64,000 nt of DNA from Flavobacteriales bacterium (GTDB lineage Bacteria; Bacteroidota; Bacteroidia; JACJYZ01): the NCBI GenBank assembly GCA_020435415.1, contig JAGQZQ010000001.1, positions 26,228 to 90,227 on the forward strand, in the 5' to 3' direction. This document shows positions 2,407-49,983 of this stretch, piece by piece (within the stretch, counting starts at the first letter, position 1; every line of letters begins with the position of its first letter). The position numbers and the translations under genes are program-made. The notes below the pieces were generated by a model. The model made no database searches. It had not been told where the DNA came from and was given only the letters and a program-made list of their open reading frames with translations.

Positions 2407-3699
2407 ATGAATACCGAACGTTCCGAGAAGTTATATGTAAAAGCACAAAGCCTTTTTCCGGGAGGCGTTAATTCTCCCGTCAGGGCATTCGGTGCCGTCA
2501 GCGGAGATCCGATATTTATTGCAAAGGGAAAGGGAGCCAGGTTATGGGATGTGGATGGAAATGAATACATCGACTTTTGTTGCTCCTGGGGTCCGCTTAT
2601 TCATGGCCATGTGCATCCGGAAGTGATGCGAAAGGTTGAAGAGGTCATGCACCTGGGTACATCGTTTGGGGCACCTACCGAACTGGAGAATCAACTGGCT
2701 TCTCTGATCATAGACAACAACCGGATGGTGGATACGCTCCGGTTTGTAAGCTCCGGGACGGAAGCCACCATGTCTGCCATCAGGCTTTCACGGGGTTATA
2801 CCGGACGCAACAAGATTCTGAAGTTCGAAGGTTGCTATCATGGTCATTCCGATGGCCTGCTGGTGAAGGCTGGCAGTGGACTGGCCACACTGGGCACCGC
2901 ATCGTCTGCCGGGGTTCCCGCCGGTTATGCGCGGGAAACCATCGTCATTCCTTTGGCCGATGAGGGCGCGCTTCAGGAAGCCTTTAAACAGCATGGTCAG
3001 GATCTGGCATGTGTGATCACAGAGCCTTTGCCTGCCAACAATGGTTTACTCAGACAGGACCCGGCATACCTTCGTTTGCTGCGTGAACTATGTACCAAGG
3101 CAGGCACGGTACTGATCTTTGATGAGGTGATCACAGGATTTCGTTTAGGTTTTGAAGGTGCGGCCGGATATTATGATATCATACCCGACCTGGTAACCTA
3201 TGGGAAGGTGATCGGTGGCGGGTTTCCCGTTGGCGCTTACGGCGGCAAACAAGAGATCATGGAACAGATCGCACCAAGCGGACCGGTATATCAGGCAGGC
3301 ACACTTTCGGGCAATCCGGTGGCCATGGCAGGTGGACTGGCCCAACTGAGCTTGTGTCTGCAGTCTGGCTTTTATGACCACCTGGCTGCCCGTACCCGTG
3401 AATTTTGTGAACGTATAACCGAAAGCGCCCGTCAAAGTGGCTTTCCTTTTTCCGTTGTTTCCGAAGGATCTATTTTCTTTTTAAGTCTGAATGAAATGGA
3501 ACCACCCAAAGCAGCCCATGAAATAGATCCGGCTGCTATCAAACTATTTTCAGAATGGCACAGGCTATTGCTGGAGGAAGGCGTCTATGTCGGACCGTCC
3601 GGCTATGAAGTTTGTTTCCTGAGTTCGGCCCACACAGATGAAGATCTGGACCAGGCCGCACAGGGCATTCAACGTTCCCTTGAAAGATTATTTTCCTGA
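2407..3699 (+). CDS. hemL: Glutamate-1-semialdehyde 2,1-aminomutase
   Basis: N-terminal LFPGGVNSPVRAF motif and a class-III aminotransferase body, about 430 aa. Confidence 0.9.
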   Translation: MNTERSEKLYVKAQSLFPGGVNSPVRAFGAVSGDPIFIAKGKGARLWDVDGNEYIDFCCSWGPLIHGHVHPEVMRKVEEVMHLGTSFGAPTELENQLASLIIDNNRMVDTLRFVSSGTEATMSAIRLSRGYTGRNKILKFEGCYHGHSDGLLVKAGSGLATLGTASSAGVPAGYARETIVIPLADEGALQEAFKQHGQDLACVITEPLPANNGLLRQDPAYLRLLRELCTKAGTVLIFDEVITGFRLGFEGAAGYYDIIPDLVTYGKVIGGGFPVGAYGGKQEIMEQIAPSGPVYQAGTLSGNPVAMAGGLAQLSLCLQSGFYDHLAARTREFCERITESARQSGFPFSVVSEGSIFFLSLNEMEPPKAAHEIDPAAIKLFSEWHRLLLEEGVYVGPSGYEVCFLSSAHTDEDLDQAAQGIQRSLERLFS

Positions 3700-3705
3700 T
3701 CAGGA

Positions 3706-4554
3706 TTACCCCAGGAATTCAAACAACCATAACCAAAGCGGCTGAGCGACCAGCATGCCATCCAGAACTGACAAATGAAAAAAGTCGCTTTCCACCCTGG
3801 CGCTGCGCACAATGAAGAACGCGGTCATCAGGTTACTTCCGGAATACGCCAGTAACTGCGCCTGACTATAAAATCCCTGAAAAAAAGTGTGGCCGGCTAC
3901 CAAACCGGTGTGAAGCAAGAGGCTGAACAACGAAATGCGGATAGCTGCTACTTTGCCCACGGTATGCACCCAGGTCTTCAATCCTTCAGCGCTATCATCC
4001 TTGGCATCGCGAACATCAAAAGGAAGTGTCAGGGCAAAGATGAAGAGGCTCCGTTCAGCAAACATGATGTACATATTTTCCCGGGTCATCACGGTCCAAC
4101 CCGAAACAACTGGTAAAGCCACCGTTACAAGCGCCCACACTACAGCGATCAGAGGAAGCTTCAGATAAGGCAGTGCGCGCAATCCACCCCATTTGCCTAT
4201 TGGTAACCTGTACAACAGAACAGGAATGCAGGTAATAAGGCAAATGGTCCACGAGATGTGATCCAGAAAACGGATCAGAAACAACATGGGCACAATGGCA
4301 ATACCCAATGCTGCCAGAAGTATTTTCCGCCTTCTTCTGCTCCACTGCAATCGAACCGGAAGATCTTTTTTGGCTGAAGTTGTGATGGTAAGCACACGGT
4401 GCATGGAATAGGACCACCATGTAGCGATCAGGACCAGGGCAAAAGCCGGCCACAAATAAGCATCATATTGCTGACCGTGCATGAGGGTAAGCATGCATTG
4501 CATGGCCGCTCCTATGGCGATCCATCCGTTTGCATACACCAGGTTCTTGAACAC
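3706..4554 (-). CDS. Polytopic integral membrane protein, function unknown (possibly a prenyltransferase-like protein)
   Basis: 282-aa ORF with about 8 hydrophobic segments and an Asp-rich FDVRDAKDD segment. No confident family assignment. Confidence 0.55.
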   Translation of the reverse strand: MFKNLVYANGWIAIGAAMQCMLTLMHGQQYDAYLWPAFALVLIATWWSYSMHRVLTITTSAKKDLPVRLQWSRRRRKILLAALGIAIVPMLFLIRFLDHISWTICLITCIPVLLYRLPIGKWGGLRALPYLKLPLIAVVWALVTVALPVVSGWTVMTRENMYIMFAERSLFIFALTLPFDVRDAKDDSAEGLKTWVHTVGKVAAIRISLFSLLLHTGLVAGHTFFQGFYSQAQLLAYSGSNLMTAFFIVRSARVESDFFHLSVLDGMLVAQPLWLWLFEFLG

Positions 4555-8309: not shown

Positions 8310-10223
8310 ATGAAGAAGATCTACACTGTTGCAGGTGCTGCATTCTTCCTGGCTAATATTGCGTTTGCTCAGCGTACCAATATTGCTCCAGCAGAAGTGA
8401 GGCCCGGTGCACAAAATGAAGTCTCCACAAACGTGGCACATTCCCTGAATGCAGGTATTGATGCATTGGGTGATACCATATGGTCTGAGGATTTTTCAGG
8501 TGGCATTCCGGCCGGCTGGGAAATCATTGACCACACTACACCGGCCACTGGAAATGTATGGGAATATGCAAGCACAGATACTATTTCCTGTATCCTCACA
8601 AGCGCCATATTCAAAGCTACTTCCGCCAAAAATGGGTATGCATTGATGTTTGGTGACCGGTACAATGCTGACGCTGGTTGCCTTAACAATCTCGGTGTCA
8701 CCTTGATGAACACTTCTCTTCAGACCCCGGCTATGGATTATACAGGTTATACATCTGTATTTCTTAAATTTCAGCATGCGTTCCGGTATTGTTGTGATCC
8801 AGCTAGCAAGTTGAGTATTTATGTGTCGAATGACAGCACCTCCTGGAAAGAATATAACGTCAAGGGTACTTACCCGGTTAGTACAGGAGTTAAGGTCAAT
8901 GACAATTCGCCTAACCCAATGATGGCATCGGTTAATATTTCGGATATTGCAAGCGGTCAGTCAAAGGTTTGGATCCGCTGGCGGATAGATGGCCCTAGTC
9001 ACTACTACTGGGCGGTTGATGATGTTGCAGTTGTTGAAGGCTACACTGAAGAAAATGCACTTGTAAGGCCGTTTGTTGACTTCAATTATATGGATGGTGG
9101 TTTTTACTCCATGTTGCCAAGGAGTCAGGGAGCCACTACACCGATCGATTTTCGTGGCGCAATATACAACAATGGTACTTCCGCTCTCGCTAACGTTGTA
9201 CTTAACGTAAAGGTGAAGGATCCTTCCGGTGCTACAGTCTATGATGAGTCTTCCACCGCTATGTCAACGGTTCCCCTTGATCTTGACACTGTTTCAACCA
9301 GTACGTCATTCTATCCGGGTTCAACATGTAATGAAATCGGTCAATACTCGATTGATTACACGGTAAACCAAACCGAAACGGATCAGTACATGGCAAACAA
9401 TACCGCATCCTTTAATTTTGCGCTTTCCGACACTGTTTTTGCACGTGATTATGGTGTTGCCAACAAGGCCATTGGCCTGACAACATGGGCCTCTTGTTCG
9501 CAGAATGCGGATGGTGAGGAAATCAGCACATTATATGAATTCAGCAGTGATGCAGTAGCCACTTCTATTTCCTTTTATAATATGGCAAGCACTACTCCCG
9601 GCGTAGCAGTGATTCTTAATCTTTACCGCTTTCAGGTAGATGGAAACGGCGCAATTGTTCAAACCAGTCCTATTGCAGCATCTGAAATTTATGACATTGT
9701 TGCCGGTGACGCTAACTCCTGGATTACTTTACCATTTACCACCCCGGTGACTGTAGAAAAGGATAGTGCATTCATGGCATCCATATCCATCTATAATATT
9801 GCCGGTAAAAGCTTCTGGGTTGGTGGTGATCTCGCAACCATTCAGCCTGATGCCACCTCATTCGCATACTGCTCAGGCGGTTGGGGTTGGGTAAGTGATC
9901 AACCGATGATCCGACTGAATGTAAATGATGGAAGTGGTAACTACTGTGTAGGTGTAAATGAGGTCGAAAACCCTCATAAAGTGAAGGTATTTCCCAATCC
10001 GAACAATGGTTACTTCAATATCATTGCTGAGAACCTGAGAGGCAGGAATAGCACAATTCAAGTAACCAATGTAATTGGTCAGGTTGTCTATTCTAAGGAC
10101 GTATGCGTTTCTACTTCTTACCTGAGTGAAACGATAGATCTATCTTCAATTGAGAAAGGTTTATATTTTGTGAAGTTGATCAACAACAACTCCGAAAGCG
10201 TATACAAGGTGGTCGTGGAGTAA
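8310..10223 (+). CDS. Secreted protein with a T9SS C-terminal sorting domain (Por_Secre_tail)
   Basis: Signal peptide MKKIYTVAGAAFFLANIAFAQ. C-terminal roughly 80 aa KVFPNPNNGYF...LYFVKL...VYKVVVE is typical of a T9SS CTD. A TAnnTTTG -7 motif (TACCTTTG, 8238-8245) lies upstream. Confidence 0.8.
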   Translation: MKKIYTVAGAAFFLANIAFAQRTNIAPAEVRPGAQNEVSTNVAHSLNAGIDALGDTIWSEDFSGGIPAGWEIIDHTTPATGNVWEYASTDTISCILTSAIFKATSAKNGYALMFGDRYNADAGCLNNLGVTLMNTSLQTPAMDYTGYTSVFLKFQHAFRYCCDPASKLSIYVSNDSTSWKEYNVKGTYPVSTGVKVNDNSPNPMMASVNISDIASGQSKVWIRWRIDGPSHYYWAVDDVAVVEGYTEENALVRPFVDFNYMDGGFYSMLPRSQGATTPIDFRGAIYNNGTSALANVVLNVKVKDPSGATVYDESSTAMSTVPLDLDTVSTSTSFYPGSTCNEIGQYSIDYTVNQTETDQYMANNTASFNFALSDTVFARDYGVANKAIGLTTWASCSQNADGEEISTLYEFSSDAVATSISFYNMASTTPGVAVILNLYRFQVDGNGAIVQTSPIAASEIYDIVAGDANSWITLPFTTPVTVEKDSAFMASISIYNIAGKSFWVGGDLATIQPDATSFAYCSGGWGWVSDQPMIRLNVNDGSGNYCVGVNEVENPHKVKVFPNPNNGYFNIIAENLRGRNSTIQVTNVIGQVVYSKDVCVSTSYLSETIDLSSIEKGLYFVKLINNNSESVYKVVVE

Positions 10224-22489: not shown

Positions 22490-23638
22490 ATGTTCAGAAT
22501 CAGATTAACCGATCTTGCCCGAAGGACAGGCGTGTTTGGGCTCCTGTTGATAATTTGCTCTTCAGGAAGCGCCCAGCAAAAAGCAACGGGCGATGGTGAA
22601 CAATTGCCACTAGTCGACGGGTCCTGCGGTTCTCCTACAGGTCCGTTCTTCGAATGGGACGGTTCGTCCTACTCCAATTACACACAAGCCAACACAGCAG
22701 GTAAATGCAATAATAACCTCACAGCCGGGCAAACATATTGCTATACCTTTCTCTATCCATCCACCGGTAGCCTTAATTTGAAGATTTATGTTAACGGGAG
22801 CTGCGGTAATTGTGATGGCAGTTTTAGTATCAATTCCGACCCTGCTTGTACCGGTGGGTGCTGGGGGCCATTTTCCAGTTTCTCAGGTTGCACCAACACC
22901 CTTTATAACTCCAGTTGTTCTCTTCAGGAGTCCGGAGGATTTGAGATGGGAACCGGTTGCACCCCAGCCATTACATGTAATACTACTTTCACCTGGTGCT
23001 TTACAGTACCAGCAGGTTGCAGCACCCTGGACATATGTCCCTTATCCAACTGTTCGGCAGGTTCCAGCAATTGTGCCGGTGGGTTGCCGGTTAAGCTTAT
23101 GAATACTCTGATAGAAGAACATGGCGAGAAAATCTTTATGGCTTGGGTAACAGGCACCGAAGAGAATAACGACTATTTTACAGTAGAAAAATCCGATGAT
23201 GGAATTCATTATCAGTTACTGACTACGGTTCAGGGCTCAGGCAACAGTTTTAAGCCAAAAAAATACAGCATTTACGATACGGAACCATATCATGGCATGA
23301 ACTACTACCGACTGTCCCAAACCGATTATGATGGAAAAACAGAGGTGCTTGACCACCTTGCGGTAAATAAAGACCCGGAAGGATTATCCATTTCATCTCT
23401 CTACCCTAATCCAGCCAACGATCTTGCACACGTATCCATTACAACCGAAACCAGTGAGCAGGCGCAGGTCCAGATCATCGACATGACCGGAAGATTGCAT
23501 TACCAGTCTTTCTACGACCTGAACGAAGGCACCAATGTGATTTATCTTCCCACCAATGAACTGCCTCAAAGCACCTATTTCTTCAGAGTTACCACCAAAC
23601 GGGGCACGGAGTATATCCGGTTTGAGAAGGTCAACTAA
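22490..23638 (+). CDS. Cys-rich secreted protein with a T9SS C-terminal sorting domain
   Basis: Signal peptide, about 30 Cys in the N-terminal 170 aa, and a C-terminal LYPNPANDL...YFFRV...RFEKVN T9SS CTD. Confidence 0.75.
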   Translation: MFRIRLTDLARRTGVFGLLLIICSSGSAQQKATGDGEQLPLVDGSCGSPTGPFFEWDGSSYSNYTQANTAGKCNNNLTAGQTYCYTFLYPSTGSLNLKIYVNGSCGNCDGSFSINSDPACTGGCWGPFSSFSGCTNTLYNSSCSLQESGGFEMGTGCTPAITCNTTFTWCFTVPAGCSTLDICPLSNCSAGSSNCAGGLPVKLMNTLIEEHGEKIFMAWVTGTEENNDYFTVEKSDDGIHYQLLTTVQGSGNSFKPKKYSIYDTEPYHGMNYYRLSQTDYDGKTEVLDHLAVNKDPEGLSISSLYPNPANDLAHVSITTETSEQAQVQIIDMTGRLHYQSFYDLNEGTNVIYLPTNELPQSTYFFRVTTKRGTEYIRFEKVN

Positions 23639-45011: not shown

Positions 45012-46034
45012 CTACCTGATCAGGAACGGGAACTTATGTACGTTTTTGAGTGCTATGCCGGTCCCCCTGGCTACTGCCCTTAGCGGGTCTTCGGCAATGT
45101 GCACAGGCAATTTCGTTTTTAGTGCAATCCGTTTATCCAGGCCACGAAGCAATGCACCACCACCGGCAAGATAAATTCCGGTCCTGTAAATATCGGCGGA
45201 TAGCTCGGGAGGTGTCATCTCCAGTGCGTTCAGGATGGCCTCTTCAATTTTGGAAATGGATTTGTCCAGCGCATGGGCGATCTCCACATAAGACACTGAG
45301 ATCTCTTTCGGAATCCCCGTCATAAGGTCACGACCATGTACGGCGAAGTCTGGTGGTGGATTGTCTATTTCCGTAAGTGCGGCACCCACCTCAATCTTGA
45401 TGCGCTCTGCAGAACGCTCACCGATCAGGATGTTGTGCTGACGACGCATGTAGTCTTCAATGTCACTGGTGAAGTCATCACCGGCTACACGGATGGACTT
45501 ATCACAAACGATCCCACCCAAAGCTATCACAGCGATTTCACTGGTACCTCCACCGATGTCGATCACCATGTTGCCGTTGGGTTCCTCCACATCAATCCCC
45601 ATACCGATGGCAGCGGCCATAGGCTCATGGATAAGGTAAACTTCCTTGGCACCGGCATGCTCTGCGGAGTCACGTACAGCCCGTTTTTCCACCTCCGTGA
45701 TACCGGAAGGAATGCATATCACCATGCGCAATGCAGGCTGGATCAGTCTTCCCTTGCGGTTGATCATCTTGATCATTCCGCGGATCATGTGTTCCGCAGC
45801 GTGGAAATCTGCGATCACACCATCCTTGAGCGGACGTATGGTTTTGATATTTTCATGGGTCTTTCCATGCATCTGCATGGCCTGCTTGCCTACAGCGATC
45901 ACCCGCCCCGACAAGCGGTCTGTTGCCACGATGGACGGTTCATCCACCACCACCTTATCGTCAGATAGTATCAGCGTGTTTGCTGTTCCCAGATCAATGG
46001 CAATTTCCTGCGTTAAGAAGTCGAATAATCCCAT
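45012..46034 (-). CDS. mreB: Rod shape-determining protein MreB
   Basis: Actin-fold motifs IDLGTANT, DIGGGT and LAGGGALL. 340 aa. Confidence 0.95.
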   Translation of the reverse strand: MGLFDFLTQEIAIDLGTANTLILSDDKVVVDEPSIVATDRLSGRVIAVGKQAMQMHGKTHENIKTIRPLKDGVIADFHAAEHMIRGMIKMINRKGRLIQPALRMVICIPSGITEVEKRAVRDSAEHAGAKEVYLIHEPMAAAIGMGIDVEEPNGNMVIDIGGGTSEIAVIALGGIVCDKSIRVAGDDFTSDIEDYMRRQHNILIGERSAERIKIEVGAALTEIDNPPPDFAVHGRDLMTGIPKEISVSYVEIAHALDKSISKIEEAILNALEMTPPELSADIYRTGIYLAGGGALLRGLDKRIALKTKLPVHIAEDPLRAVARGTGIALKNVHKFPFLIR

Positions 46035-46231: not shown

Positions 46232-46771
46232 TTACTTCCTGATCACGGTATTAAATTTCCCATGCTCAAAACGAATGGTATCCACCGCATTGGGATAGTG
46301 TTTGGGATCATCTGGATCTATCACCATGATTAACTGAAACTCTCCCCTGACCTCACCGGTAATCTCATCATAATGAGTCACCTTGATGAAATTGTCAAAG
46401 CCAATCATAGGAATAACGTGATACACATTATCAATCACATCTCCATCCTCTTGCAAGGTGGCATAAAATGCGCCGGTGATCACCGAATCTGTGTGGGCAT
46501 CTATTGTGTCAATCATATTCCACTGATTCTTGTACGGGATACGGAAAATATATAGCGACTCCCTTAGAAATTGATATTCATTGTATACATCAATGTTAAG
46601 GTCAAAACCGTAACCAAACGGTTTACTTGGAATGCCTTCGATCAAGGCACGCCAGGGCTGGCCATTTTTCACCGCCGTGGCCTCGCCTTCATAACCCTTA
46701 AGGAGGATGGGGTCCGGCTTGCAGCCTTGCAGCATGGGCAGGATTATAAGAAGAGTGACCAGGTACCGCAT
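46232..46771 (-). CDS. Lipoprotein, tandem paralog A (family of unknown function)
   Basis: MRYLVTLLIILPMLQGC is a lipobox. 179 aa. About 85% identical to paralogs B and C. Confidence 0.7.
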   Translation of the reverse strand: MRYLVTLLIILPMLQGCKPDPILLKGYEGEATAVKNGQPWRALIEGIPSKPFGYGFDLNIDVYNEYQFLRESLYIFRIPYKNQWNMIDTIDAHTDSVITGAFYATLQEDGDVIDNVYHVIPMIGFDNFIKVTHYDEITGEVRGEFQLIMVIDPDDPKHYPNAVDTIRFEHGKFNTVIRK

Positions 46772-46864
46772 TAGTTCTTTAATACCATTAGTTTCCTTGT
46801 CTCAACAAATTCGTTTGTTTTCAGCTGGACAAAAATACTTCCACAGGAACCTATAAGCGAATAT

Positions 46865-47404
46865 CTACTTCCTGATCACCGTAGTGAATTTCCCATGTTC
46901 AAACCGAATGGTATCCACCGCATTGGGGTAGTGTTGAGGGCGACTCAAATCAATGATCGTAGTCAATTGAAACTCTCCGCTGACTTCACCGGTATGTTCG
47001 TTGTAATGGGTTACGGTTATATAATTATCAAAATCAACGGCATTGAAAACATGATATATATTATCAATCACATCTCCATCCTCCTGCACGGTGGCATAAA
47101 ATGCGCCGGTGATCACCGAATCTGTATGGGCATCTATTGTGTCAATGATATTCCACTGATTCTTATATGGGATACGGAAAATAAATAACGATTCCCTTAG
47201 AAATTGGTATTCATTGTATACATCCACATTAATATCAAACCCGTAACCATAAGGTTCACTTGGAACGGCCCTGATCAATGCACGCCAGGGTCGGCCATTT
47301 TTCACCGCCGTGACCTCCCCTTTATAGCCCTGAAGCAGGATGGGGTCCGGCTTGCAGCCTTGAAGCAGGGGAAGGATCAATAGTAGAGTGACCAGGTACC
47401 GCAT
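46865..47404 (-). CDS. Lipoprotein, tandem paralog B
   Basis: Same length and lipobox as A. Identical 54-nt upstream leader. Confidence 0.7.
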   Translation of the reverse strand: MRYLVTLLLILPLLQGCKPDPILLQGYKGEVTAVKNGRPWRALIRAVPSEPYGYGFDINVDVYNEYQFLRESLFIFRIPYKNQWNIIDTIDAHTDSVITGAFYATVQEDGDVIDNIYHVFNAVDFDNYITVTHYNEHTGEVSGEFQLTTIIDLSRPQHYPNAVDTIRFEHGKFTTVIRK

Positions 47405-47496
47405 TAGTTCTTTAATACCATTAGTTTCCTTGTCTCAACAAATTCGTTTGTTTTCAGCCGGATAAAATACTTCCACAGGAATCTATAAGCGAATAC

Positions 47497-48036
47497 CTAC
47501 TTCCTGATCACCGTAGTAAATTTCCCATGTTCAAACCGAATGGTATCCACCGCATTGGGGTATTGCTTAGGATCATCCGGATCAATGACCACCATCAATT
47601 GAAACACCCCGCTAACTTCACCGGTATGCTTGTTGTAATGGGTTACGGTTAGATAATTGTCAAAATGAACGTCATTAAAAACATAGTATGCATTGTCCAT
47701 CACATCTCCATCCTCCGCCAGGGTAGCATAAAATGCACCAGTAATCAACGAGTCGGTATGCCAACCTATCGTGTCGATCAGGTTCATCTGATTTTGATAG
47801 GGAATCCTGAAAATAAACAAAGACTCCCTTTGAAACTGGTATTCATTATAGACCTCCATGAGAATATCAAACCCATAGCCAAGTGGTTTGTTTGGAACAG
47901 CCCGGATCAAGGCACGCCAGGGCTGGCCATTTTTCACCGCCGTAGCCTCGCCTTCATAACCCTGAAGCAGGATAGGGTCCGGCTTGCAGCCTTGAAGCAG
48001 GGGCAGGATCAAAAGTAGAGTGACCAGGTACCGCAT
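47497..48036 (-). CDS. Lipoprotein, tandem paralog C
   Basis: Same as A and B. The upstream leader copy at 48037-48095 is followed by unique sequence. Confidence 0.7.
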   Translation of the reverse strand: MRYLVTLLLILPLLQGCKPDPILLQGYEGEATAVKNGQPWRALIRAVPNKPLGYGFDILMEVYNEYQFQRESLFIFRIPYQNQMNLIDTIGWHTDSLITGAFYATLAEDGDVMDNAYYVFNDVHFDNYLTVTHYNKHTGEVSGVFQLMVVIDPDDPKQYPNAVDTIRFEHGKFTTVIRK

Positions 48037-48459
48037 TAGTTCCTTAATACCATTAGTTTCCTTGTCTCAACAAATTCGTTTGTTCTCAGCCGGACAAAAT
48101 ATTGTCCAGGCGTTAACCCCGAAATATCCAACTTAAAGGTATGAAGTCCTGAAGGAAAACCGCCATTGTCTTTGGCAAGGATTAATTTTCAGCATGATTT
48201 CAGGTGTTTGGTTTGAAGCAAAGCTATCCCAAACGGAACCGTTAGTAAAGGGACAAGTCAATGACGTTTGATAGTTAGGATGATCTGGTCCGGGGTTATT
48301 TTGTCAACAACAAAAACCTCGTCAGATACAGATTACGGAGCTTGTAATCGCATCAAAAGAATATTCAGCGGTACCCATTGTGGAATGGAATCCTTACTGC
48401 ACAAAACGTGCAAAGGTCATCAAAATAGAAACTTCAGGATAAAGGGGACAAATCCTCGT

Positions 48460-49983
48460 CTAATGTTTAAAATGCCGCTTACCGGTCACGACCATGGCCA
48501 TGTTCTGTGAATTGCAGTAGTCTACAGAATCCTGATCCTTTACGGAGCCACCCGGTTGTACCACAGCTGTGATGCCCGCCTTGTGCGCGATCTCCACGCA
48601 ATCCGGGAAGGGGAAAAAGGCATCCGAAGCCATGACGGCACCCTGCAGGTCAAAGCCGAAGTGCCTGGCTTTGGCAATGGCTTGCTCCAGGGCATCCACG
48701 CGCGAGGTTTGTCCCACGCCACTTGCCAGAAGCTGCCCGTCTTTGGCCAATACAATGGCGTTGGACTTCGTATGCTTCACCAGCTTCACCGCAAAGATCA
48801 TGTCCGCGATTTCGCTCTGCGCCGGTTTCCTTTCGGTAGCGGTTGTAAAATCAGCGGCGGTTTCTGTGAAAACATCCCTGTCCTGCTCCAGCACACCATT
48901 CAGAATTGTGCGGAATTGTTTGGTGGAACGTTTGATCTCCTTTCTCTTCAGGATGATCCTGTTCTTCTTTGACTGTAGCAGAGTCAATGCCTCCGGTGCG
49001 AAGTCGGGTGCGATGAGTACTTCAAAAAACAACTTGTTCATCTCCTCTGCTGTGGCCAGATCAATGGGGCGGTTGCTCACCAGTATCCCACCGAATGCAC
49101 TCACCGGATCCCCAGCCAGGGCATCTTTCCACGCATCAATAAGGTGCTCCCTGCTTGCCAGTCCACAGGCATTGTTGTGCTTCAGCACGGCCACGGTGGT
49201 TTCTTCAAAATCATCTATCAGCGCCACGGCGGCATCTATGTCGAGCAGGTTGTTGTAAGATATTTCCTTGCCGTTCAATTTGTCAAATGCCTGATCGAGG
49301 TCGCCGTAGAAAACGCCCTGCTGATGGGGATTCTCACCGTATCTCAACACATGGGCCGGAGCCGCATCTGCTTTAAATACCATTGGCTGATCTCCCTGAA
49401 AGAAGCTGAATATGGCGCTGTCATAGTGCGATGAAACATCAAATGCACGGCATGCCAGGGCCTGACGTTGGGCCAGGGTGGTAACGCCGTCGTTCTCATC
49501 CAGGAAACCTTCAAGTACGGCATACTCTTTTAAGGAAGGCACGATCACCACATCGCTGTAGTTCTTTGCTGCCGCACGAATAAGGGAAATGCCACCGATA
49601 TCTATCTTTTCTATGATCTCCTGGTGGGATGCTCCGGATGCAACCGTATCTTCAAAAGGATAGAGGTCTACGACCACGAGGTCAATCTCCGGGATCTCAT
49701 ATGTAGCCAGTTGCTCCACATCGCCTGCTTCTGACCTGCGACTCAGGATACCTCCGAATACTTTTGGGTGCAGGGTCTTTACCCGCCCCCCAAGAATGGA
49801 CGGATAGCTGGTCAGTGATTCGACCGGGGTTACCGGAACCCCCAATCCTTCAATGAATGTTTGGGTTCCTCCGGTGGAAAACAGCTGGACGCCTTTTTCA
49901 TGAAGTTTCCTCACAGGGCCTTCCAGACCATCTTTGCTAAATACAGAAATCAGTGCCGACTTTATTTTTTTCTTTCCTTCCAT
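48460..49983 (-). CDS. purH: Bifunctional AICAR transformylase / IMP cyclohydrolase
   Basis: N-terminal MGS-like domain (ALISVFSKDGL) and a C-terminal AICARFT domain. 507 aa. Confidence 0.9.
   Translation of the reverse strand: MEGKKKIKSALISVFSKDGLEGPVRKLHEKGVQLFSTGGTQTFIEGLGVPVTPVESLTSYPSILGGRVKTLHPKVFGGILSRRSEAGDVEQLATYEIPEIDLVVVDLYPFEDTVASGASHQEIIEKIDIGGISLIRAAAKNYSDVVIVPSLKEYAVLEGFLDENDGVTTLAQRQALACRAFDVSSHYDSAIFSFFQGDQPMVFKADAAPAHVLRYGENPHQQGVFYGDLDQAFDKLNGKEISYNNLLDIDAAVALIDDFEETTVAVLKHNNACGLASREHLIDAWKDALAGDPVSAFGGILVSNRPIDLATAEEMNKLFFEVLIAPDFAPEALTLLQSKKNRIILKRKEIKRSTKQFRTILNGVLEQDRDVFTETAADFTTATERKPAQSEIADMIFAVKLVKHTKSNAIVLAKDGQLLASGVGQTSRVDALEQAIAKARHFGFDLQGAVMASDAFFPFPDCVEIAHKAGITAVVQPGGSVKDQDSVDYCNSQNMAMVVTGKRHFKH

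Follow-up and report, generated by a model that had tools for sequence, protein, structure and literature searches.

Proteases secreted by the type IX secretion system (T9SS) are major virulence and nutrient-acquisition factors in Bacteroidota, and the only lipoprotein guard described against a bacterium's own T9SS proteases is that of the potempins, a system put forward as exclusive to Tannerella forsythia. Potempins are outer-membrane lipoprotein β-barrels that are co-transcribed with the T9SS KLIKK peptidases they inhibit; they form stable inhibitory complexes and protect surface proteins, and PotE, PotB1 and PotB2 are eight-stranded up-and-down barrels (PMC9890683). Their genes immediately adjoin those of peptidases with a C-terminal sorting domain, and 'orphan' lipoprotein open reading frames (ORFs) were noted as well (PMC9890683). 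In Pseudomonas aeruginosa, bamI is co-transcribed with the gene for Mep72 and relieves Mep72 toxicity, a BamI-Mep72 complex is formed, and a parallel to AprI/AprA was drawn (PMC4334185). In this study, a tandem array of three lipoprotein genes was analyzed in a 64,000-nucleotide stretch (the window) of the 157.8-kb contig JAGQZQ010000001.1, from a Flavobacteriales metagenome-assembled genome (MAG), where the genes are annotated as KDD36_00310 to KDD36_00320. An original prediction, made from the sequence alone, had described the array as a triplicated lipoprotein gene with a promoter leader in front of each copy.

The lipoproteins belong to a family whose members are dedicated partners, encoded downstream, of a T9SS-secreted reprolysin-like zinc metallopeptidase (an M12B metzincin). 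In the window, all that remains before the lipoprotein gene is the tail of a C-terminal sorting domain (CTD), whose stop codon TAA overlaps the ATG; the peptidase itself is missing. The reading that we favor, with an overall probability of about 0.6, is that the array consists of three old paralogues of a partner lipoprotein whose peptidase has been lost. The anatomy and history of the array are very probable parts of this reading, while an inhibitory function of the lipoprotein, argued by analogy, is tentative and stands slightly below even odds.

Pairing of the lipoprotein family with T9SS metallopeptidases

Family loci were found with a degenerate DNA pattern lying wholly inside the lipoprotein gene (DGDV…DTIxFxxGxF) and by exact look-up of a few relatives. 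The pattern gave 14 loci, among them one without a family member (L017), and all loci were scanned in six frames with three hidden Markov models (HMMs), for the family, the partner-peptidase body and the CTD. Peptidase body, CTD and lipoprotein were present in this order at 12 independent loci (L002-4, which is a single locus with three sightings, L005 to L013, L016 and L018), and the lipoprotein started 2-67 nucleotides (nt) past the peptidase stop. All eight full-length neighbors were assigned to Reprolysin_3/4/5 (M12B) and Por_Secre_tail in Pfam. These neighbors were 601-635 amino acids (aa) in size, with one ORF of 426 aa, and an intact zinc site HExxHxxGxxH was present in eight peptidases. 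The best named NCBIfam similarity of the partner peptidases was to the metzincin Mep72 (E = 1e-10), and one of them was also weakly similar to CpaA (E = 2e-5).

A reciprocal test was performed with four peptidases from a peptidase-profile search, chosen blind to the lipoprotein (from Leadbetterella sp. DM7, a Dyadobacter, a Cyclobacteriaceae MAG and one other), and all four preceded an abutting or overlapping family member. The total thus came to 16 independent intact pairs, with the lipoprotein gene downstream of the peptidase gene in 16/16, at most 67 nt past the peptidase stop or overlapping it. Pairwise distances of peptidase and lipoprotein were correlated over 11 pairs (Mantel r = 0.78, P = 1e-4), indicating that the two genes diverge together as a module. 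The module was observed in Saprospiraceae, Chitinophagales, Cytophagales (Leadbetterella, Dyadobacter, Cyclobacteriaceae), Bacteroidales, Marinilabiliales (Tangfeifania), Flavobacteriaceae and an Ignavibacteriales MAG. The earlier suggestion of an immunity-protein-like array pointed in the right direction, since the family is the dedicated partner of a secreted peptidase. An incomplete literature search turned up no earlier account of the pairing, an absence that is weak evidence.

Two of the loci had further features. In Dyadobacter (L108/L109, 1-8851), the pair directly followed a gene encoding an RHS-repeat protein with a Tox-SHH toxin tip and a DUF7668 gene, and a T9SS Peptidase_C25 gene came after the pair, making this a neighborhood of secreted effectors. 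On contig JBKHIH010000078.1 (L012), labelled as a Thiohalospira sp. MAG, the pair was very similar to that of a Bacteroidales MAG (L011); this contig is probably a binning contaminant, because a T9SS is not expected in a gammaproteobacterium.

The family is much larger than the three copies. A word-seeded search of 5.8 billion proteins with one copy as query returned just the three copies and suggested an orphan family, an idea overturned by an exhaustive search in HMMER. There, a profile made from the mature domains of the window copies retrieved 456 cluster representatives at E ≤ 1e-3, including 103 at E ≤ 1e-10, and the best 150 of the 456 were nearly all 160-200 aa long and matched over most of their length. 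The window copies show full-length homology to this ~180-aa family and carry a signal peptidase II signal peptide with the lipobox Cys. This residue, Cys17, was invariant in 69/69 aligned family sequences, and the family motifs are Y-G-x-A-x-A-x-K-N-G-x-x-W, D-G-D-V, E-x-x-G-x-F and P-D-T-I-x-F-x-x-G-x-F.

The proteins had been said to have no recognizable domain, and this holds at curated thresholds, where no curated family claims them; below the thresholds, and with 456 relatives, it does not. DUF6252 (PF19765) weakly matched 9/69 family members (best E = 5.5e-6) and NF052634 (Riean_0653_fam) 47/69 (best E = 2.8e-8), both below their curated cutoffs. Copy 2 reached 17.5 bits against DUF6252 (E = 0.005, threshold 27.2) over its C-terminal 49 residues only, and copies 1 and 3 gave no DUF6252 match. 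Against Riean_0653_fam (cutoff 57), copies 2 and 3 reached 13.0 and 15.4 bits and copy 1 had no match. DUF6252 and Riean_0653 are likewise small Bacteroidota proteins of similar length with weak, consistent similarity, neither has a described link to a T9SS peptidase, and judged by their scores they would at best be distant relatives of the lipoprotein family. The Riemerella paper has no neighborhood or localization data for Riean_0653, and a literature search on DUF6252 found nothing.

Anatomy of the array and its shared leader

Along the minus strand, purH is separated by a 423-nt gap from copies 3, 2 and 1, in this order, and a further gap of 197 nt separates copy 1 from mreB-mreC-mreD-mrdA. 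The features are listed below with window coordinates.

47497..48036, minus strand: copy 3, first in the direction of transcription, 179-aa lipoprotein with lipobox LLQGC (ORF; KDD36_00320)
46865..47404, minus strand: copy 2, 179-aa lipoprotein paralogue (ORF; KDD36_00315), query of the structure model
46232..46771, minus strand: copy 1, last and next to mreB, 179-aa lipoprotein paralogue with lipobox MLQGC (ORF; KDD36_00310)
48036..48188, minus strand: relic of the CTD of a lost T9SS cargo gene (translation and HMMs)
47405..47496, minus strand: spacer between copies 3 and 2, a CTD-tail copy ending in KYFIRLKTNEFVETRKLMVLKN and a stop, containing the '54-nt leader' (repeat and translation)
46772..46864, minus strand: spacer between copies 2 and 1, another copy of this CTD tail, frameshifted by a 1-nt insertion
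48189..48459, minus strand: rest of the purH-proximal gap, without an ORF (three-frame translation full of stops)
48460..49983, minus strand: purH, upstream housekeeping flank (ORF; tblastn synteny in 66 relatives)
45012..46034, minus strand: mreB, downstream housekeeping flank (ORF; Pfam MreB_Mbl on an identical protein)

The three ORFs of exactly 179 codons each are direct repeats with a start-to-start period of 633 and 632 nt. The co-orientation, the periodicity of about 633 bp, the triplication of the gene together with sequence upstream of it (here 92-93 nt) and the LQGC lipobox were as originally predicted, the N-terminus of every copy being MRYLVTLL(L/I)ILP(L/M)LQGC, with a 16-residue signal peptide, the lipobox L(L/M)QGC and Cys17. 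The predicted identity of about 85% was too high, as the copies are 77-81% identical in protein and 78-83% identical in coding sequence. Variable patches were found, with bounds at residues ~45-61, 81-97 (mostly copy-3-specific) and 106-158 where two patches had been described; the termini were not invariant, with one change in the C-terminal 21 residues and six in the first 44. Copy 3 matched the family HMM with E = 1.7e-62. The NCBI entry for copy 1 (KDD36_00310) is 167 aa long, starts at Met13 and so lacks the signal peptide; judging by copies 2 and 3 and by the conserved leader, the 179-aa start is the probable one.

Two metagenome assemblies, ERZ28655481 and ERZ27309210, were 100% identical to window positions 48154-47385 and 48154-47439, respectively. 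Both matches extend from the unique upstream flank through copy 3 and the spacer into the beginning of copy 2, and both break inside the near-identical leader, in the manner of short-read assemblies at true repeats. The full agreement of two independent assemblies over the junction of copy 3, spacer and copy 2 indicates that the array is real, and copies that differ at 17-22% of bases are not a product of repeat mis-expansion. The assembly artefact that had been raised as a possible refutation is contradicted on both counts. Tandem Repeats Finder was silent on the array only because its maximum period is 500.

The 54-nt leader is indeed shared between the units. A 41-nt core (46779-46819, 47412-47452 and 48044-48084, minus strand) was 100% identical in the three units, with a chance expectation of 0 matches. 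The last 54 nt of the leader showed 0-2 differences between units, with 2 differences separating the spacer between copies 3 and 2 from the relic that precedes copy 3. The two spacers between copies, which had been described as nearly identical, agreed at 88/93 positions. The promoter nature assigned to the leader was not supported. A sigma-70 scan gave no match in the leaders, with counts at shuffle level, and the Bacteroidota TAnnTTTG motif was present in only one of three leader spacers and hence is not a conserved element. Folding of the leader RNA was no better than that of shuffles (z-scores -0.4 to -1.7). The 41-nt core also contains a small inverted repeat, AACAAA-CGAA-TTTGTT, whose folding energy did not exceed the shuffles' level.

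Translation shows that the leader is the last ~20 codons of a T9SS sorting domain, of which a relic of ~50 codons stands before the first copy. The leader frame ends on a TAA that overlaps the ATG of the copy (TAATG) and reads …YF(V/I)RL(R/K)TNEFVETRKLMVL(R/K)N before the stop. Upstream of copy 3, this frame runs for 50 codons after an in-frame stop and encodes KLILAKDNGGFPSGLHTFKLDISGLTPGQYFVRLRTNEFVETRKLMVLRN, followed by the terminal stop. The relic peptide reached 23.5 bits against TIGR04183, the T9SS type-A sorting domain (cutoff 23.0, E = 4e-5), with the match spanning model positions 41-71 of 72; against PF18962 it reached 20 bits (E = 8e-4), below the cutoff of 27. The CTD HMM built from the partner peptidases matched the relic stretch in L024/L025 (E = 0.002). 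Peptidase HMM scans found no peptidase remnant in 48189..48459 and no catalytic domain in the 423-nt gap or elsewhere in the 64-kb window. The CTD match of the leader with no catalytic domain nearby indicates that the 'promoter leader' is the fossil 3' end of a T9SS-cargo gene, and the relic is a truncated pseudogene remnant with no functional domain.

Two further T9SS type-A sorting domains were present in the window at 9975-10217 (+) and 23393-23617 (+), with E = 3e-8 and 8e-8 for the CTD HMM, indicating that the organism encodes more T9SS cargo. Neither of them was joined to a reprolysin-like domain.

Arrays and peptidase losses were also observed at other loci. At L005, the peptidase is kept, and its CTD is followed by three tandem lipoprotein copies that are 74-77% identical. 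The L005 spacers are 126 nt long and 94% identical to each other, and their likeness to the local CTD tail is merely suggestive (5/500 shuffles score as well). The closest available relative (42% identity) is carried by L023, which has at least three abutting copies. In the cultured Tangfeifania diversioriginum DSM 27063 (L014, 5145-6412), an intact lipoprotein gene follows an internally deleted peptidase, whose 229-aa remnant joins the N-terminal 100 positions to the CTD; here too, and independently of the window, the peptidase has decayed and the lipoprotein has been kept. In a Saprospiraceae MAG (L019, 2929-4055), only a CTD-tail relic (weak, E = 0.0017) precedes the lipoprotein gene, and the N-terminus of another family peptidase lies ~240 nt downstream of the lipoprotein, where the contig ends, a layout that hints at tandem peptidase-lipoprotein modules. 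HMM scans gave no peptidase trace at loci L001, L015, L020 and L021. With these arrays and losses, the window, with its relic and three copies, represents one end of a spectrum.

Two further observations were made at these loci. At L001, an isolated fragment at 3987-4115 (+), whose match to the family HMM (E = 1.6e-6) is confined to the C-terminal 41 positions, sits 1.6 kb downstream of a complete family gene and is probably a decayed second copy. At L005, just downstream of the array (2414-3697, minus strand), two adjacent paralogous genes encode proteins of 228 and 186 aa with a near-identical N-terminal CxxC…CxxC zinc-ribbon-like region and a membrane segment.

Divergence, predicted fold and site of insertion

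To describe the evolution of the three copies, substitution rates were calculated by the Nei-Gojobori method. Synonymous divergence (dS) was 0.55-0.99, nonsynonymous divergence (dN) was 0.11-0.14 and dN/dS was 0.14-0.22, with segment-wise values of at most 0.42. The dS values mean that the duplication is not recent, contrary to what had been proposed, and the dN/dS values mean that the copies are under purifying selection. The positions that differ among the copies also vary family-wide (entropy 3.02 vs 2.33, P = 5e-5), so relaxed constraint is likelier than targeted diversification, and the description of the copies as diversifying could not be upheld.

The proposal of ongoing gene conversion, in contrast, was supported by two signals. 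The copies agree in a mosaic manner (copies 1 and 2 at ~nt 240-320, 2 and 3 at ~nt 360-405, and 1 and 3 at ~nt 460-465), and 75 agreement runs were observed along the gene against 96 ± 5.7 expected from permutations (P = 1.5e-4). Variable third-codon positions numbered 15/59 in the termini (codons 1-40 and 161-179) and 69/120 in the core (Fisher P = 6e-5). The uniformity of the terminal third-codon positions, together with the near-identical non-coding spacers, indicates that gene conversion, and not protein constraint alone, homogenizes the ends of the units. Potempins are 4-14% identical and yet have unexpectedly conserved signal peptides (PMC9890683), which the homogenized N-termini of the window copies resemble.

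The structure of copy 2 was modelled with AlphaFold2 from 69 sequences, with a predicted local distance difference test (pLDDT) score of 94.3 and a predicted template modelling score of 0.86; a three-sequence model gave pLDDT 33 and was discarded. Past the signal helix, the predicted fold is all-β, with nine main strands and one 3-residue strand, and corresponds in the model to a generic soluble up-and-down β-barrel. Foldseek comparison of the model with the PDB gave no significant match, and there was no PDB sequence match for the lipoprotein. Loops were assigned to the barrel ends by topology alone, which is an inferred assignment. The turns K-N-G, N-E-Y-Q-F and E-D-G-D, predicted to be anchor-distal, do not differ among the three copies and have the highest conservation in the family. 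Variable positions numbered 19/49 in the anchor-proximal loops and 3/16 at the distal end, a pattern that suggests the conserved distal end of the barrel as the functional face.

The residues after the lipidated Cys were also compared within the family. Of the members, 53% have K/R at position +3, 52% have D/E at +4 and 35% have D/E at +5, compared with a D/E background of 14%. The optimal Bacteroidota lipoprotein export signal, defined experimentally, is C-X-K-(D/E)2-X (PMC5080379). The family consensus C-x-K-(D/E)-(D/E) fits this surface-export signal, suggesting that most family members are probably surface-exposed.

The array block is a lineage-specific insertion at the purH-mreB junction. 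At the MreB loci of 80 relatives (81-90% MreB identity), purH was directly upstream on the same strand in 66; of these, 65 have gaps of 4-287 nt and the remaining one has 563 nt, compared with 2,425 nt in the window. Among the other 14/80, ten had ≤~1.1 kb of upstream sequence, and four had 3.0-4.5 kb and were still without purH. Neither the lipoprotein family nor the peptidase was found at any of the 80 MreB loci. The G+C content of the array is 43.9%, compared with 51.7% in purH and mreB. The insertion into a housekeeping context that had been proposed was thereby supported by synteny, and its left boundary is somewhere in 48189..48459. No flanking direct repeats of ≥9 nt were found around the array, and the relatives had no alignable intergenic DNA, including for 48189..48459. 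Scans of the window with the family, peptidase and CTD HMMs found nothing beside the array except the relic; mobile-element genes were not systematically searched.

Proposed history, rival explanations and known systems

The ancestral module would have consisted of a peptidase gene with a type-A sorting domain followed directly by the lipoprotein gene. A tandem duplication whose left breakpoint lay within the peptidase gene, ~93 nt from its 3' end, would have yielded units of CTD tail plus lipoprotein gene, later three in number, so that the fossil 3' end was duplicated along with the lipoprotein gene at every duplication. Of the peptidase gene, only the last ~50 codons would have escaped deletion. 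The CTD tail, the signal peptide and the N- and C-terminal coding parts are kept near-identical by gene conversion, and the cores have diverged under purifying selection.

As for function, argued by analogy alone, the mature barrel of ~160 residues, tethered to the outer membrane, would most likely bind the partner metallopeptidase and hold it inactive at the envelope until release. Precedents for such restraint are the action of potempins on KLIKK peptidases, of AprI on AprA and of BamI on Mep72. The orphan copies of the window could serve a peptidase encoded elsewhere in the genome or protect against the peptidases of neighbors, or they may persist because they have not yet decayed. A bolder version, in which the family comprises undescribed, phylum-wide guardian lipoproteins of T9SS M12B metzincins, potempin-like by independent origin and far commoner than the Tannerella system, and the array is an orphan anti-protease shield kept against peptidases secreted by neighboring Bacteroidota, a counterpart among proteases to orphan immunity arrays, is argued by analogy and appears unlikely.

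Several observations weigh against the reading of the array as orphaned partner paralogues with a restraining function. The gene order is opposite to that of the potempins and BamI, whose inhibitor gene is upstream, and a latency prodomain may already be present in the partner peptidases in the form of their N-terminal ~190 residues. With C-K-P-D-P, the window copies deviate from the strict form of the surface-export motif. The purifying selection may largely predate the loss of the peptidase. No cognate peptidase of the source MAG was found among the 81 matches of a limited, non-exhaustive search.

The strongest rival is that the lipoprotein is not an inhibitor but a dedicated secretion or maturation chaperone, or a surface tether, of the T9SS metallopeptidase that escorts or retains the enzyme, a role like that played by CpaB for the metzincin CpaA in Acinetobacter. 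This idea accounts equally well for the tight operonic linkage and the co-divergence, and it also agrees with the weak similarity of one partner peptidase to CpaA (E = 2e-5), with an outer-membrane lipoprotein location, which is the T9SS exit site, and with the conserved barrel end (KNG, NEYQF and DGDV turns), which suggests one docking surface. Three intact copies without an adjacent peptidase are, however, harder to explain for a pure chaperone, and, according to the potempin study, PotA is dispensable for the secretion and maturation of prokarilysin (PMC9890683); we consider this rival improbable. Less probable still is a ligand-binding surface barrel of the lipocalin, hemophore or TbpB-lobe type that takes up a product of the peptidase, such as a peptide or haem, with the array widening the ligand range or dosage.

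The idea that underlay the original prediction, a recently amplified and diversifying surface antigen or dosage-amplified family with a promoter leader for each copy, accounts for the triplicated gene, the conserved upstream sequence, the variable patches and a lipoprotein possibly at the surface. It is largely refuted and now very unlikely, as a dS of 0.55-0.99 is not recent, a dN/dS of 0.14-0.22 is not diversifying, the variable sites are the generally unconstrained sites of the family, and the leader is a relic of the CTD in which no promoter consensus is conserved. The least credible explanation is an assembly artefact or a set of decaying pseudogenes of a dead module. The source is a MAG, the adjoining peptidase is a pseudogene relic and short-read assemblies break in the array repeat, but two assemblies are 100% identical over the junction of copy 3, spacer and copy 2, the copies are too divergent for an expansion artefact, and all three ORFs are intact at exactly 179 codons with dN/dS well below 1.

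Under the preferred reading, the triplication itself is modest, and the value of the locus lies in the module that it exposes and in a testable hypothesis. The window illustrates how such a module can evolve, with a breakpoint inside the secretion tag, gene conversion at the junctions, and the partners kept after the enzyme was lost. If the analogy holds, the pairing of protease and guardian would be a general design principle of T9SS cargo, and the family would offer a new scaffold for metzincin inhibitors. Cultured carriers of the module exist, so the idea is directly testable.

Three known systems can be compared with the array. Orphan immunity-gene arrays downstream of polymorphic toxin loci, including those of contact-dependent inhibition, Rhs and the type VI secretion system, consist of tandem diverged partner genes; each orphan gene is preceded by a 3' fragment of the effector gene, and the junctions are homogenized. 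The 'effector' here is, in contrast, a secreted peptidase, for which there is no evidence that it targets competitors, and the fragment kept is a secretion tag and not a toxin tip. In the AprI/Inh (MEROPS I38) and BamI-Mep72 systems, a metzincin is likewise accompanied by an adjacent, co-expressed small protein that neutralizes it before export. AprI is an eight-stranded β-barrel that acts through a free N-terminal trunk entering the active site, and such a trunk is impossible for the window lipoproteins because their N-terminus is the lipidated Cys. AprI and BamI are not lipoproteins, their systems use type I or type II secretion and not the T9SS, and the window lipoproteins have no sequence similarity to them or to the serralysin inhibitor family I38.

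Like the potempins, the family is made up of outer-membrane lipoproteins with a small, here predicted, β-barrel fold, encoded next to a T9SS peptidase gene. Unlike them, its gene lies downstream of the peptidase in all 16 pairs, whereas a potempin gene lies immediately upstream; the proteins are larger, have no sequence or close structural similarity to potempins and accompany a different peptidase family. By analogy, the family would resemble the potempin/KLIKK pairing in its way of working, without being a member of it.

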